Part shown: piece by piece, positions 11,890-26,338 of the stretch
Layout: the number at the start of each line of letters is the position of its first letter
Position numbering within the stretch: the first letter of the stretch is position 1
NCBI GenBank assembly: GCA_963816415.1
Contig: CAWFKR010000014.1
Span: forward strand, 102,996-166,995
Length of the DNA stretch: 64,000 nucleotides
From: an uncultured Pseudomonadota bacterium
GTDB lineage: Bacteria > Pseudomonadota > Gammaproteobacteria > Burkholderiales > Casimicrobiaceae
Direction: 5' to 3'
Translations under genes and position numbers: made by a program
The notes under the pieces: generated by a model
What the model was told of the DNA's origin: nothing
Seen by the model: only the letters and a program-made list of their open reading frames with translations
Databases searched by the model: none

Positions 11890-12996
11890 GTGAAGCTCTT
11901 TCTCTGCGGCGACGTGATGACCGGACGCGGCATCGACCAGATCCTGCCGCATCCGGGCAGGCCGCAGCTGTACGAACCGTACATGCGCTCGGCGCAAGGC
12001 TACGTCGATCTGGCCGAGCAGGCGTCGGGGCCGATCCTGCGTCCCGTCGGCTTCGACTACATCTGGGGTGATGCGCTGGCGGTGCTCGATCGCGAGCACC
12101 CCGATGCGCGGATCGTCAACCTGGAAACGGCGATCACCACCGCCGACGACGCGTGGCCCGGCAAGTCCATCCATTACCGGATGCATCCCGACAACGTCGG
12201 CTGCCTTTCCGCAGCGGGCGTCGATTGCTGCGTTCTTGCCAACAATCACGTGCTCGACTGGGGCTACGACGGCCTCCGGTCGACCCTTGCCACCCTGCAC
12301 GCTGCCGGCATGCGAACGGCCGGCGCGGGACTGACGCGCGCCGCCGCTGCCGCGCCCGCAGTCCTCGATGTGGCACAGGGCTCGCGCGTTCTGGTGTTCG
12401 CGATGGGAATGGCGAGCGCGGGCGTGATCGAGGACTGGGCCGCGACCGACGATCGTCCGGGCGTCGATTTCCTGCACGAGCTTTCGCAGGACGCGGTGCG
12501 GGCGATCGCGCGCCGGGTCGGCGAGGTGAAACGCGGCGGCGACATCGTCGTCGCGTCGATCCACTGGGGCTCGAACTGGGGTTACGGCGTCCTGCCCGCG
12601 CAGCGGGAATTCGCGCATCGGCTGATCGACGAGGCACGGGTCGATGTCGTTCATGGCCACTCGTCGCATCACCCGATCGGCATCGAGGTCCACGACGGCC
12701 GACTCGTCCTCTACGGCTGCGGCGATTTCATCGACGACTACGAAGGCATCAGCGGCTACGAGGCGTTCCGTCCCGACCTCACCGCCGCGTACTTTCCGAG
12801 CCTCGACGCCACCGGACGCCTCGCCGCGCTCACGCTGGCGCCGATGCGCATCGACCACCTGCGGGTCAATCGCGCGACGACGGCCGAGGCCCGCTGGCTC
12901 GCGCAGGCGCTGACGCGTGCTTCGCGCGATTTCGGGGTCGCGATCGCCGTCGAAGGTGAGGGCGATGATCTGCGACTGGTCGTCGGGCGGCGTTGA
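11890..12996 (+). CDS. CapA/PGA_cap family metallophosphoesterase-fold protein
   Basis: GDVMTGRG, NLET, LANNHVLDWG, SIHWG, HGHSSHH, YGCGDF; GTG start 11890. Confidence 0.9.
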   Translation: MKLFLCGDVMTGRGIDQILPHPGRPQLYEPYMRSAQGYVDLAEQASGPILRPVGFDYIWGDALAVLDREHPDARIVNLETAITTADDAWPGKSIHYRMHPDNVGCLSAAGVDCCVLANNHVLDWGYDGLRSTLATLHAAGMRTAGAGLTRAAAAAPAVLDVAQGSRVLVFAMGMASAGVIEDWAATDDRPGVDFLHELSQDAVRAIARRVGEVKRGGDIVVASIHWGSNWGYGVLPAQREFAHRLIDEARVDVVHGHSSHHPIGIEVHDGRLVLYGCGDFIDDYEGISGYEAFRPDLTAAYFPSLDATGRLAALTLAPMRIDHLRVNRATTAEARWLAQALTRASRDFGVAIAVEGEGDDLRLVVGRR

Positions 12997-13036
12997 CCGG
13001 TCCGACCCCGTCGCGCGGCGTTGTCCGGTCCGACCC
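12987..13036. repeat. 22-bp direct repeat, two copies, 28-bp period
   Basis: GCGGCGTTGACCGGTCCGACCC (12987-13008) and GCGGCGTTGTCCGGTCCGACCC (13015-13036), 21/22 identical. Confidence 0.8.
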
Positions 13037-13071
13037 GTGGGGCGTCGCCACGGGCGCTGCGCCGATGCAGG

Positions 13072-13113
13072 TTGACGTGAATCAAGAACCGCGCCGGGGC
13101 TGCAGGAGACGAT
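13072..13113 (+). promoter_or_regulatory. FNR/CRP-family box with class II promoter spacing
   Basis: TTGAC-GTGA-ATCAA (13072-13085), 22 nt, GACGAT (13108-13113), upstream of acsA. Confidence 0.72.
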
Positions 13114-13145
13114 AGCAACCGGGCGAAGAATGAAGGACCGGGTCG

Positions 13146-14909
13146 ATGCGAGCTTCGATCATCCGCAAGACGGCATCCGACCTGCGGGTTGCGCCCAACC
13201 TCGCCGACTACGACGTCGAGCGCGGGCGATTCTCGTGGGCCGCTGCCGCTGCCGAGCTCGGGCTGCGCCCACAGGGCCCGGTCAACATCGGACAGCTCGC
13301 CGTCGATCGACACCTCGGCACGCCCGTTGCCGACCGCACCGCGTTGCGCTTCATCGCCCGCGACGACCGCAGGCGCGACATCAGCTACGCGGAGCTCGCC
13401 GCCCTTTCCAACCGGTTCGCAGCTGCCCTGCGCAGCCTCGGCGTGGGCAAGGGCGAACGCGTGTTCCTGCTCGCCGGACGCATCCCCGAGCTCTACATCG
13501 CGGCGCTGGGCGCTCTCAAGAACGGCAGCGTCGTCTCCCCGCTGTTCTCGGCTTTCGGGCCCGAACCGATCCGGACCCGCCTCGCGCTCGGCGAGGCGCG
13601 GGTCCTGGTCACGACCGAGTCGCTCTACCGGCGCAAGGTCGCAGGCATTGCGAGCGAGCTGCCGCGACTTGCCCACATCCTGCTGGTCGGCGACGATGCC
13701 GCGCCGACCGATGTCCCCGGTACGCACGATCTGGCGACGCTGATGCACGCCGCGGGCGACCGCTTTGCGGTCGAGCAGACGACCGCCGACGACATGGCAC
13801 TGCTGCATTTCACCAGCGGAACGACCGGAACGCCCAAGGGTGCCGTCCACGTGCATGGCGCCGCCGTCGCGCATTACGCGACCGGCCGCTACGCGCTCGA
13901 CCTGCACCCCGACGACGTGTTCTGGTGCACGGCCGACCCTGGCTGGGTCACGGGCACCTCCTACGGCATCGTCGCGCCGTTGCTGCATGGCGTCACCAGC
14001 GTCGTCGACGAGGCGGATTTCGACGCCGAGCGCTGGTACCGGCTGCTCGACGAGCACAGGGTCAGCGTCTGGTACACGGCGCCGACCGCGGTGCGCATGC
14101 TGATGAAAGGCGGTGCCGCGCTGGCGCAGGCGCATCGTCTGCCGGCATTGCGATTCATTGCCAGCGTCGGCGAGCCGCTCAATCCCGAGGCCGTGTGGTG
14201 GGGCGAGGAGGCATTCGGGCTGCCGATCCACGACAACTGGTGGCAGACCGAGACCGGCGGCATCATGATCGCGAACATGGCTGCGATGGACATCAAGCCG
14301 GGATCGATGGGCAAGCCGCTGCCGGGAATCGACGCGCTCGTGGTCGCGCGCCGCGACGACGGGAGCTGCGAGGAGATCACCGCGCCCGGCGTGCAGGGTG
14401 AGCTCGCACTGCGCAGGGGCTGGCCGTCGATGTTCCGCGGCTACCTGAACCAGGACGAGCGCTACCGGAAGTGCTTCTGCGGCGACCTGTACCTGACCGG
14501 GGATCTGGTCACGCGGGATGACGACGGCTACTACTGGTTCGTCGGGCGGGCCGATGACGTGATCAAGTCGGCGGGACACCTGATCGGACCGTTCGAGGTC
14601 GAGAGCGCACTGATCGAGCATCCGGCGGTTGCCGAGGCCGGTGTCATCGGCAAGCCCGATCCGGTCGTCGGCGAGACGGTGAAGGCCTTCGTGTCGCTGA
14701 AGCCCGGCTACGTGGCCAGCGAGGCGCTCCGGATGGAACTGCTGGGCCATGCCCGCAAGCGTCTGGGTGCGGCGGTGGCGCCCAAGGAGATCGCGTTCCT
14801 GCCCACGTTGCCGCGCACGCGCAGCGGCAAGATCATGCGGCGGCTGCTGAAGGCGCGCGAGATGGGCTTGCCCGAGGGCGACACGTCGACGCTCGAGGCG
14901 GATGCATGA
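13146..14909 (+). CDS. acsA: Acetate--CoA ligase-like AMP-forming enzyme
   Basis: [48 protein letters not shown]. Confidence 0.9.
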
Positions 14910-14997
14910 GCGCGAAAGCTGAGCCCAGGGGCGGCCCCGAGGGCGAATGCCGGAGTGCGCGGCACGACGGTGGTCCAATGCACCCGAAGGAGACCCG

Positions 14998-24938: not shown

Positions 24939-25096
24939 GGTCGTGGCGACGTGGTGTTGCTGCTGCCGATCCTCCGGCCATCATATACGCGCAGCGCGGC
25001 CGCTTGGGACACGGTGGGGGCAGGGGCACGGCGGCGCGCGGTGGGCGGCACGCGGCGGCGCGCGCGTCCGGCACGCAGGCCCGGGGTTCCCCAGGG

Positions 25097-25138
25097 TTGA
25101 CGTACGTCAAAACCATCGGGCCGGCGGCGGGTCAGAAT
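25097..25138 (+). promoter_or_regulatory. FNR/CRP-family box with class II promoter spacing
   Basis: Perfect palindrome TTGAC-GTAC-GTCAA (25097-25110), 22 nt, CAGAAT (25133-25138); between divergent nrdJ and hsp20. Confidence 0.78.
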
Positions 25139-25275
25139 GAGCAGGAGTTGCGGGGGCCCGCGAAAGTCCGCATGGCGGGTGGGTGTCGCTTGTGCGCGAG
25201 TCGCCTCCGCAGCGGATTGGCCCGTGCCAGCGGGGCGGGTCTGCTGCACGCAGCGTAACCACGATGGAGAGCACC

Positions 25276-25722
25276 ATGGCAAATCTCACCCGATTCGATC
25301 CGTTCGGCGATATCGCAACCCTCGCGCCGTTCCGTGACATGGAGGATTTCTTCCGCATGCCGCGGCTGCGCGCCTGGAGCCGGGATCTTCCCGCCGCACC
25401 CGAGATCAGGATCGACGTCTCGGAAGACGACAAGACCTATCACGTCAAGGCCGAGATTCCCGGCGTCAAGAAGGAGGACATCCACGTCGCGGTCGAAGGA
25501 AACCAGGTGTCGATCAGCGCCGAGGTGAGGAAGGAAGAGGAAGAGAAGAAGGGCAAGACGGTTCTGCGCAGCGAGCGCTACTACGGCAAGCAGGAGCGCA
25601 GCTTCACGCTGATGAACGACATCGACGAGAGCAAGTCGGAGGCCAAGTATGAGAATGGCATTCTCGACCTCGTCCTGCCCAAGAAGAACGGCACGGTTTC
25701 GAAGCAGGTGACAGTCAAGTAG
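25276..25722 (+). CDS. Hsp20/alpha-crystallin small heat shock protein
   Basis: IDVSE, AEIPGVKKEDI, SERYYG...RSF.L, A.YENGIL.L.LPK; GGAG RBS. Confidence 0.95.
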   Translation: MANLTRFDPFGDIATLAPFRDMEDFFRMPRLRAWSRDLPAAPEIRIDVSEDDKTYHVKAEIPGVKKEDIHVAVEGNQVSISAEVRKEEEEKKGKTVLRSERYYGKQERSFTLMNDIDESKSEAKYENGILDLVLPKKNGTVSKQVTVK

Positions 25723-25819
25723 AACGCTCCGGCATCGAAGCAGACGCAGGCCGGAAGAATCCGTCGGTTCCGCGAGCCCCGGGTTCGCGGGATCGAGGGT
25801 AACGAGCGATGGAATCCAC

Positions 25820-26338
25820 ATGACAAGACCGAAGCTGTCCCCCAAGGCCCCTTTCCCGCCTGCTGCCGGCATGCGACCGGGTCAACGCGTATTCGACGCC
25901 AAGCAACACGACCCGTACCAGGTCGCCGGCAAGTATCCGGAGCCAACGGTCTGCCCGGATTGCCGCGCGGTGTTTCACCACGGACACTGGCAATGGGGAG
26001 ACGCGCCGGAGGGGGCGCATCAGACGCGCTGTCCGGCATGCCGGCGCATCCATGAAAAGCTGCCCGCCGGCTGGCTGACGCTCGGCGGCGCGCATTTCAA
26101 CGCACATCGTGCCGACGTGCTCGCGCACCTGCACAAGGTGGCAGCCCGCGAACGCGAGGAGCATCCGCTCAATCGCGTCATGGCGATCGAGGAAGGACCC
26201 GACGAGGTCGTCGTCACCACCACCGACATCCATACGCCGCAGCGCATCGCCGAGGCGCTCAAGCGCCAGCACCACGGCGATTTCGATGTCCAGTACGGCC
26301 ATGACGAATACTCGGTGCGCGTGCACTGGCGCGCCTGA
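25820..26338 (+). CDS. BCAM0308-family zinc-binding protein
   Basis: HDPY...K.PEPTVCPDC, CPACRRI....PAG, EHPL.R.M, TT..H..QRI.EAL. Confidence 0.8.
   Translation: MTRPKLSPKAPFPPAAGMRPGQRVFDAKQHDPYQVAGKYPEPTVCPDCRAVFHHGHWQWGDAPEGAHQTRCPACRRIHEKLPAGWLTLGGAHFNAHRADVLAHLHKVAAREREEHPLNRVMAIEEGPDEVVVTTTDIHTPQRIAEALKRQHHGDFDVQYGHDEYSVRVHWRA

Follow-up and report, generated by a model that had tools for sequence, protein, structure and literature searches.

The lxa locus of Burkholderia cenocepacia J2315 (BCAM0275a-BCAM0323) is induced by low oxygen and carries a TGA-N6-TCA motif, similar to Anr/Fnr sites, at several intergenic points (Sass et al. 2013, PMC3721108). In the same study an alpha-crystallin, a nitroreductase and a class II ribonucleotide reductase (RNR) were listed, among others, as common to lxa and the mycobacterial DosR regulon. 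The latter includes the block Rv0569-Rv0574c with nrdZ, Rv0571c, a phosphoribosyltransferase (PRT), and Rv0574c (PMC5309233). Rv0574c is described in the literature as CapA-like and hypoxia-induced, and induction of nrdZ under anoxia has been reported for Sphingopyxis. The overlaps between Anr, Lxa and DosR were tabulated in a 2025 review (PMC12071387), where it was asked whether they reflect convergence or common ancestry; FixLJ-FixK control was proposed there for the Burkholderia lxa locus. Here, we describe a gene cluster of similar content in a 64-kb window, i.e. the whole analyzed stretch of contig CAWFKR010000014.1 from an uncultured Casimicrobiaceae bacterium. The cluster encodes, among others, a CapA-family protein, a class II RNR, an Hsp20 and a BCAM0308-family protein, and three of its operons are preceded by FNR-type boxes.

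Because of the high GC content of the window (~70%), genes were called by GC3 periodicity; they were named by means of Pfam, NCBIfam and PDB sequence searches. The nearest CapA proteins belong to metagenome-assembled genomes (MAGs) of Casimicrobiaceae and are 97-98% identical, the best 120 matches containing close relatives only. Matching DNA was found in wetland, rice paddy, soil and sediment metagenomes. For comparison, stretches of genomes and metagenomes carrying relatives were gathered, which are numbered L001 onwards. In our view, this cluster is probably native to the chromosome of a Casimicrobiaceae-like betaproteobacterium of wetland, paddy and soil and represents this lineage's version of a low-oxygen (lxa/Anr-type) stimulon. 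This judgement applies to the explanation as a whole, namely a native cluster, FNR-type control and a pool of families exchanged gene by gene.

The cluster resembles lxa in that, in a betaproteobacterial host, a BCAM0308-family gene is accompanied by genes for a nitroreductase, an alpha-crystallin Hsp20 and, close to it, a class II RNR. The TGA-N6-TCA motif likewise occurs at several intergenic points, in the window at the promoter-proximal sites 13072, 20427 and 25097. The two loci are likened here by families and by the published description, and they differ in size (14.5 kb versus 50 kb for lxa). Unlike lxa, the window lacks universal stress proteins (USPs), polyhydroxyalkanoate genes, acetate kinase/Pta, a cation ATPase, an FtsH-like protease, ribokinase and regulators; USP triplets are present in two related islands (L043, L077). 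The window adds CapA, an operon for Acs, pyruvate dehydrogenase (PDH) type E1/E2 and acyl carrier protein (ACP), a DksA-like protein together with a dienelactone hydrolase (DLH) type hydrolase, a helix-hairpin-helix (HhH) partner of the RNR, and gshA. CapA, dienelactone hydrolase and PDH genes are not mentioned in the main text of Sass et al. (PMC3721108).

At the level of families, the cluster also resembles the DosR regulon (hspX/acg and the block Rv0569-Rv0574c with nrdZ, Rv0571c, pncB2 and Rv0574c), with which it shares CapA/PGA_cap, a DLH-type hydrolase, a class II RNR, Hsp20 and the nitroreductase fold. The RNR model TIGR02504 covers both NrdJ and NrdZ. Related loci extend this likeness to PncB, RtcB-archease, S30AE, USP, CBS and a HisKA_3/GerE system (DosR content in part after PMC5309233). 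The DosR regulon differs in regulator, DNA motif, gene order and phylum. Moreover, the RNR of the window is closest to proteobacterial NrdJ, its nitroreductase is a single-domain NfsB/FRP-like protein and not Acg/Rv3131-like, and its hydrolase is not fused to a PRT.

An earlier note on this DNA had named CapA, hydrolase, nitroreductase, class II RNR, Hsp20, BCAM0308, PDH-ACP, DksA/TraR and HhH genes, all of which were recovered with Pfam, NCBIfam or PDB; gshA and an acetate-CoA ligase gene had escaped it. The DosR likeness that it drew is real with respect to families and domain architectures, as seen from a 61% identical CapA in a Mycobacteriales MAG and from PRT-hydrolase fusions in Actinomycetota. 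The concept is not new: the lxa-DosR overlap and the motif were published in 2013 (PMC3721108), and a review of 2025 (PMC12071387) set Anr, Lxa and DosR side by side. The value of the locus lies in the breadth across phyla and in a number of specific new parts.

FNR-type boxes at three operons

Strict TTGA-N6-TCAA cores occur three times in the 64-kb window compared to 0.10 expected, and none out of 100 shuffled sequences reached this number. None of the three lies within a confidently called gene. The boxes at 13072 and 25097 are intergenic and head the acs and hsp20-BCAM0308 operons, respectively (see table). A further box in front of the dksA-like operon is degenerate, with three mismatches to TTGAT-N4-ATCAA and one good half-site. 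The three boxes reported for the cluster earlier were thus found again, two as strict sites and the third, at 20427, in degenerate form.

In all three operons (acs, dksA-like, hsp20) the box is located 21-22 nt upstream of a -10-like hexamer and no -35 element is seen; the GACGAT hexamer of acs lies ~26 nt before the start of the gene. As judged from sequence, this layout matches that of class II FNR-activated promoters, the spacers of 22, 22 and 21 nt fitting a centring at -41.5 or -40.5. The same arrangement of a TTGAT-N4-ATCAA-type palindrome is known from the class II regulon of Anr/FNR (E. coli FNR, P. aeruginosa Anr). The putative targets are similar as well, with fermentative/acetyl-CoA metabolism, small stress proteins and the locus of an oxygen-independent RNR among them, and related islands (L164, L165) encode an FNR with CxxCx5C...C ligands. 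Differences to these regulons are that the regulator is encoded outside the window, that respiratory targets (nar, nir, cco, hemN) are missing and that the RNR has no class II box. Scans for sigma-70 consensus promoters and for terminators between 10.9 and 27.9 kb gave nothing above chance. For the promoters, this is expected if they are activator-dependent.

Further support for functional boxes is provided by their conservation. Upstream of acs, L001, L005 and L015 retain TTGACGTGCGTCAA, followed at the same 22-nt distance by a GAnnAT hexamer, although their remaining intergenic DNA has diverged. In L001 the dksA-like operon is preceded by TTGCGCCAGGTCAA and TACAAT in the same arrangement. 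The hsp20 box of L097, whose RNR is 92% identical, reads TTGATGTACGTCAA and is followed by a 22-nt spacer and CAGAAT, and L090 carries TTGACGTCCATCAA upstream of its BCAM0308 gene. All three boxes are therefore conserved among relatives (L001, L005, L015, L097, L090) despite drift of the flanks. Since the boxes are conserved at class II spacing and related islands encode a Cys-liganded FNR, FNR-type control is the best reading of the promoter sequences for the acs, dksA-like and hsp20 operons.

The third strict core, TTGATGGAAATCAA (52210-52223), is a perfect FNR box outside the cluster that is overlapped by low-confidence open reading frames (ORFs) only. The stretch around it (46000-53800) has a GC content of 0.64 and few confident gene calls, and a tRNA gene is located close to the box (52800-52886, minus strand). 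This tRNA was the sole RNA detected in the Rfam scan, which revealed no riboswitch in the region.

Neighbourhoods of CapA and BCAM0308 relatives

Synteny of 12 genes, from cytochrome b561 through the HhH gene, was observed in L001, L005 and L015, where CapA is 72-80% identical. The order dksA-like-nitroreductase-hydrolase is kept in these three loci, and cytochrome b561 together with the short-chain dehydrogenase/reductase (SDR) gene is syntenic with capA in L001 and L015. The acs-PDH-ACP operon is retained more widely, in L001, L005, L015, L008 and L069, the last being a Methylomirabilota MAG. Outside its own lineage this gene order breaks up; each neighbour family of CapA was present in at most eight of the 80 genome loci that were collected around the CapA subfamily.

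Recurrent neighbours of CapA are phosphoribosyl pyrophosphate (PRPP) synthetase, a PRT beside the same hydrolase family, nitroreductases, USPs, RtcB with archease, the hibernation factor S30AE, PncB with isochorismatase, Hsp20 and BCAM0308-family genes. To obtain an empirical background, 80 loci anchored on long-form NrdJ were used and compared to 81 CapA loci (after addition of L001 and L002 and removal of duplicates). Nitroreductase (8 loci), hydrolase (9), PRT (6), RtcB (6), archease (5) and S30AE (4) were found in CapA loci and in none of the background loci, while PRPP synthetase was found in 9 CapA loci and in one NrdJ locus. At least one such family is present in 32 of the 81 CapA loci. 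The same families thus recur near CapA, without a fixed module and with variable gene order.

The CapA loci contain 83 strict FNR cores versus 9.9 expected from base composition (~8-fold). In 89 cases an ORF starts just downstream of a box; the most frequent Pfam families of these ORFs were CapA (6), AMP-binding (5), USP, HSP20, CBS and PRT (4 each), followed by PRPP synthetase (3), nitroreductase and S30AE (2 each). Four loci from Burkholderiales MAGs (L009, L014, L043, L077) each carry 7-10 strict TTGA-N6-TCAA boxes within 13-20 kb and look like dense FNR regulon islands. Their contents comprise CapA, BCAM0308, USP triplets, Hsp20, nitroreductase, PRPP synthetase, RtcB-archease and a pair of kinase and GerE response regulator. 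L043 and L077 combine BCAM0308, CapA, kinase, GerE response regulator, three USPs and Hsp20. In L031 an FNR box, a 606-aa short RNR and CapA lie on one strand, with CBS-BON, USP and HhH genes close by.

A striking look-alike of the DosR regulon, without a strict FNR box, is L002 (3071-11110, Gammaproteobacteria MAG JAWLAN010000006), where genes for HisKA_3 kinase, GerE response regulator, S30AE-CSD, isochorismatase, NAPRTase, archease, RtcB and CapA follow one another.

The Hsp20-BCAM0308 pair of the window recurs in L097, L164 and L043. In L164 (region 10001-10904) the genes HSP20-BCAM0308-S30AE-CBS are neighboured by those for a CRP/FNR protein, a PAS-HisKA_3 kinase and two response regulators; L165 (region 10001-10872) has BCAM0308-S30AE, USP and RtcB-archease with the same regulatory cassette (FNR). 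In both loci the S30AE gene follows directly 3' of the BCAM0308 gene. The CRP/FNR proteins encoded there have CxxCx5C and a central cysteine, i.e. all four FNR-type cysteines, as well as an E--SR recognition helix, and on these residues are classified as true FNR/Anr-type oxygen sensors. CapA, hydrolase and BCAM0308 families thus recur near genes for Cys-liganded FNR and DosS/R-like two-component systems. These data provide good comparative evidence that the families constitute a predicted FNR-controlled low-oxygen gene set in Proteobacteria, of which the window would be one lineage-specific assembly.

Four cysteines are invariant in the BCAM0308 family, of which some members match the Pfam NMD3 domain (PF04981). 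The best PDB matches of its AlphaFold model (pLDDT 78) are yeast and human Nmd3 on pre-60S particles, although these matches are weak (E = 1.3e-3, TM 0.46). The Nmd3-like model and the operonic S30AE partner suggest a ribosome-associated role, which would make the family a candidate ribosome-binding or -silencing factor of hypoxic cells. BCAM0308 is hardly mentioned in the literature searched.

Regulation and origin of the cluster

According to the mechanism that we propose, an FNR/Anr-type regulator encoded outside the window would gain its [4Fe-4S] cluster and dimerise when oxygen falls. The dimer would bind to the boxes at about -41.5 and recruit RNA polymerase. Hsp20 and the NMD3-like BCAM0308 protein could then preserve proteins and perhaps ribosomes, while the B12-dependent, oxygen-independent RNR core and its DNA-binding HhH partner might sustain the supply of deoxyribonucleotides for maintenance and repair. 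Redox state and transcription would be adjusted by the flavin nitroreductase, the DLH-type hydrolase and the DksA-like factor. Acs, the PDH-like E1/E2 and ACP may handle acetyl units and reducing equivalents. CapA would be a loosely linked member of the same toolkit.

Several observations weigh against this picture. No gene for FNR/CRP, USP or a DosS/R-type two-component system was found among the called genes of the 64-kb window, whose sole two-component system (4569-6705) is of the HisKA/Trans_reg_C type; no search aimed at a DosR motif was made. Within 100 nt upstream of capA there is no FNR box; among CapA homologues elsewhere, a box precedes six. The gshA gene has its own CATAAT -10 element (22149-22154) and no FNR box, and a class II box is lacking here for the RNR-HhH operon, too. 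The box at 25097 is ~160 nt away from the divergent RNR start and its spacing to the RNR is different in L097. Control of RNR-HhH by FNR is therefore unsupported. Relatives of the RNR are mostly found in housekeeping contexts (Exo_endo_phos, DUF1489, AsmA/DUF748 and EarP in 80 metagenome loci), in loci without other genes of the cluster, and of 74 loci only 10 have an FNR-like box ahead of the RNR. Thus, the RNR is an unreliable marker of the cluster. Contigs from soil metatranscriptomes (at least 90% identity; runs X23, X24, X25 and X27; window positions 10000-29000) are concentrated on hsp20 (25216-25849), where three of the four runs reach a depth of 31-67, and on part of acs (13804-14437), where the depth is 19-50, with little on gshA and RNR. 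This accumulation is probably in part cross-mapping of relatives; it is a weak sign that relatives of hsp20 and acs are transcribed and is silent on oxygen. Finally, the functions ascribed above to the Acs-PDH-ACP operon and to CapA, the hydrolase, BCAM0308 and HhH are putative.

A further point against direct oxygen control is that the box also fits regulators of the FixK, Dnr and NnrR type, so that the signal could be nitric oxide or a kinase cascade. The motif TTGA-N6-TCAA is common to the whole CRP/FNR subfamily, and the palindrome is the same as in the FixK box of rhizobia. A regulator without an oxygen-labile cluster, governed by a haem PAS kinase cascade or by nitric oxide, might read the boxes, and the sensing logic would then be nearer to DosS/DosR than the earlier note had assumed. 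In related islands, genes for a PAS-HisKA_3 kinase, GerE and single-domain response regulators indeed lie right beside the CRP/FNR gene, as in FixLJ-FixK, the system proposed for lxa of Burkholderia and the Burkholderia cepacia complex (PMC12071387). However, the kinases of these islands are HisKA_3 and not HisKA, the CRP/FNR proteins keep the FNR cysteines and none of these genes is found in the window. The presence of all four cysteines in the CRP/FNR proteins of L164 and L165 suggests that, in these relatives at any rate, oxygen is sensed directly, and we regard another reader of the boxes as improbable. A low-oxygen gene cluster under FNR-type control, as put forward in the earlier note, therefore remains our reading in view of the conserved boxes at class II spacing, the co-occurrence of families and the Cys-liganded FNR in related islands. 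The note's further claim of a re-wiring to a different sensor is overstated, because related islands carry both FNR and a PAS-HisKA_3/GerE system (DosS/R- or FixLJ-like), and the window carries neither.

With respect to the origin of the cluster, the same note had envisaged one low-oxygen module shared with the Rv0569-Rv0574c/DosR blocks that moved across phyla and was then put under FNR. CapA relatives that are 52-66% identical across phyla, including Mycobacteriales (61%) and Bathyarchaeota MAGs, in a neighbour-joining (NJ) tree with mixed phyla, would fit such a transfer, as would the 55-67% identity of the hydrolase to PRT-hydrolase fusions of Actinomycetota and the short RNR adjoining CapA in L031. 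The neighbours of CapA in L002 (PncB, RtcB-archease, S30AE) can be likened to Rv0573c, Rv2630/2631 and Rv0079 (in part after PMC5309233). The remaining parts do not follow, since the RNR is up to 77% identical to long proteobacterial NrdJ and the nitroreductase is NfsB/FRP-like with no Acg-type match. Gene order differs everywhere, neighbour families do not exceed 8 of 80 loci, and the GC content within the cluster (0.695) equals that upstream of it (0.696). Neither an integrase or other mobility gene nor a border tRNA was detected at the cluster edges in Pfam, NCBIfam and Rfam scans of the window. Variable order, native GC content and the kinship of the RNR fit gene-by-gene exchange rather than a moving module, and a transfer en bloc is very doubtful. 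The overlap with DosR is most readily accounted for by a common, widespread pool whose gene families were gained and lost one at a time.

We also considered that the neighbourhood arose by chance and comprises ordinary metabolic and stress genes, a few of which have FNR-like boxes for single operons, without being a functional cluster. A housekeeping gshA in the middle, dadA (26404-27744) at the edge, the contexts of the RNR relatives, the high variability of CapA neighbourhoods and the lack of a regulator in the window speak for this. It is nevertheless unlikely: the 12-gene synteny persists down to 72% CapA identity, three conserved boxes lie within 14 kb, compared to 0.10 expected in 64 kb, and the same families repeatedly co-occur in independent box-dense loci.

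Going beyond the native, FNR-controlled cluster, we tentatively raise the possibility of a pan-bacterial "hypoxic quiescence toolkit" that is exchanged gene by gene and placed under FNR, often together with a DosS/R-like cascade, in Proteobacteria and under DosR in Actinobacteria. CapA and PRT-DLH would be its most mobile markers and BCAM0308 a new ribosome-silencing factor. Members may include CapA, PRT/DLH-type hydrolase, short NrdJ/Z-type RNR, RtcB-archease, S30AE, BCAM0308, USP, CBS/BON, small heat shock proteins and nitroreductase. If true, the question posed in the 2025 review (PMC12071387), i.e. convergence or shared ancestry of the Anr/Lxa/DosR overlap, would receive a concrete answer from comparative data. 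Should our reading of the cluster hold, the low-oxygen persistence programmes known from pathogens, i.e. those of Burkholderia (lxa), Pseudomonas (Anr) and mycobacteria (DosR), would each have been put together locally from a single widespread pool of gene families, in which soil and wetland bacteria are rich. Marker families for such programmes in uncultured genomes would then be available in CapA, BCAM0308 and the PRT-DLH hydrolase. In addition, a tail-less B12 RNR with HhH, an NMD3-like protein operonic with a hibernation factor, an Acs-PDH-ACP operon and CapA would be placed in a defined regulatory context.

Gene map and individual proteins

The genes of the cluster form the transcription units capA; acs-pdhA-pdhB-E2-acp; dksA-like-nitroreductase-hydrolase; gshA; nrdJ(short)-HhH; and hsp20-BCAM0308. 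On one side they are flanked by dadA, a NUDIX gene, proB, rho and trxA, on the other side by an OmpR-type two-component system and transporters. The likely start of capA is the GTG at 11890, where homologues align from residue 23.

Genes and FNR-type boxes of the cluster and its immediate upstream neighbours (positions in the window)
Feature	Position	Strand	Match or remark
Cytochrome b561	10219-10965	-	Pfam, NCBIfam; divergent from capA
SDR/FabG-like reductase	11084-11788	-	Pfam, NCBIfam; divergent from capA
CapA-family protein (PGA_cap, metallophosphatase-type)	11890-12996 (ORF open from 11824)	+	PF09587, 266 bits
Strict FNR-type box TTGACGTGAATCAA	13072-13085	+	TTGA-N6-TCAA core; 22-nt spacer; -10-like GACGAT 13108-13113; heads acs operon
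Acetate-CoA ligase type (acs)	13146-14909	+	NF003313, 912 bits (cut-off 729)
PDH-type E1 alpha	14947-15981	+	
PDH-type E1 beta	15984-16955	+	
PDH-type E2	16965-18287	+	Pfam domains
ACP	18319-18597	+	PP-binding
Dienelactone-hydrolase-type alpha/beta hydrolase, 229 aa	18575-19264	-	PDB 2o2g, E = 1.6e-63
Nitroreductase, single 211-aa domain	19317-19952	-	PF00881, 109 bits
DksA/TraR zinc-finger protein (dksA-like)	19963-20358	-	
Degenerate FNR-type box TTGACTTGGCGCAA (minus strand TTGCGCCAAGTCAA)	20427-20440	-	21-nt spacer; TACAAT -10 20400-20405; heads dksA-like operon
gshA (glutamate-cysteine ligase)	20452-22026	-	TIGR01434, 544 bits
HhH protein, 310 aa	22150-23082	-	HHH_8 + HHH_5, PolX 8-kDa-like
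Class II RNR, 619 aa	23079-24938	-	TIGR02504 NrdJ_Z, 588 bits (cut-off 400)
Strict FNR-type box TTGACGTACGTCAA	25097-25110	+	TTGA-N6-TCAA core; 22-nt spacer; -10-like CAGAAT 25133-25138; heads hsp20-BCAM0308
Hsp20	25183-25722	+	PF00011, 69 bits
BCAM0308 family	25820-26338	+	NF040826 lxa_BCAM0308 equivalog, 180.4 bits (cut-off 100), positions 4-152/153

Members of the CapA subfamily with 52-66% identity are spread over more than 10 phyla (loci L004-L083), among them Proteobacteria, Chloroflexota, Methylomirabilota, Myxococcota, Cyanobacteria and Bacteroidota. Homologues were also found in the Mycobacteriales MAG mentioned above (L074), on a 7-kb contig with uninformative neighbours, and in a Bathyarchaeota MAG (L054). 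The NJ tree is star-like with phyla intermixed, which suggests frequent exchange of this single gene. Such conservation (or mobility) is unusually high for a non-essential enzyme.

With Pfam, the hydrolase of the window gave a weak Hydrolase_4 match only; it was named dienelactone hydrolase because PDB entry 2o2g is deposited under this name and homologues have DLH matches. Among the best 150 relatives (55-67% identical), about a third are fusions of 425-475 aa. Pfam analysis of eight of these revealed the architectures PRT-hydrolase, hydrolase-PRT and PRT-hydrolase-erythromycin-esterase. Some PRT-hydrolase fusions stem from Actinomycetota and Streptosporangiaceae (63% identity) and correspond to Rv0571c/Rv2030c-type architectures. 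The family is thus fused to PRT in both orders and once also to erythromycin-esterase (proteins P0242-P0306, P0277). Unfused genes for PRT, hydrolase and PRPP synthetase stand side by side next to CapA in L006, L011, L021 and L065. A search for relatives with the actinobacterial PRT-hydrolase fusion P0247 returned no Mycobacterium protein, and the contexts of actinobacterial fusions (L166-L169) contained S30AE, baeRF and POR genes, with neither NrdZ nor CapA.

The best PDB matches of the nitroreductase are NfsB/FRP-like NAD(P)H oxidoreductases. No Acg-type chain was retrieved in the PDB sequence search at E <= 0.001; a solved Acg-type structure presumably exists.

Profile matches of the acs-PDH-ACP operon include TIGR03182 (444 bits) and PRK09212 (400 bits), and the operon contains no E3 gene. 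As the ACP gene directly follows the E2 gene, ACP instead of CoA may be the acceptor of the acyl unit. The secondary PDH of P. aeruginosa (PA3415-3417) was considered as an Anr-controlled precedent and set aside, as published work documents its expression in biofilms and under HxuI, with no direct link to Anr.

The RNR gene is coupled to the HhH gene by overlap of its stop with the HhH start (ATGA, 23079-23082). Relatives of the RNR at 57-77% identity are proteobacterial NrdJ proteins of 950-1000 aa with a terminal CxxC...CxxC tail. The protein of the window lacks the C-terminal extension (~370 aa) of long NrdJ and, as read from its sequence, has retained the active-site cysteines as well as NPCGE, the thiyl-radical motif. 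Short forms were also seen in L090 and L031, the latter having an HhH gene in the locus and CapA adjoining the RNR. The HhH protein itself consists of PolX-like 8-kDa and HhH domains followed by an unassigned C-terminal domain. A frameshifted RNR-HhH fusion was rejected because the HhH protein shares no homology with the extension at the C-terminus of long NrdJ.

The gshA gene is probably a housekeeping passenger, and its linkage to the tail-less RNR may or may not be meaningful. In L090 (~6300-6592), gshA again adjoins a BCAM0308 gene and a short RNR.

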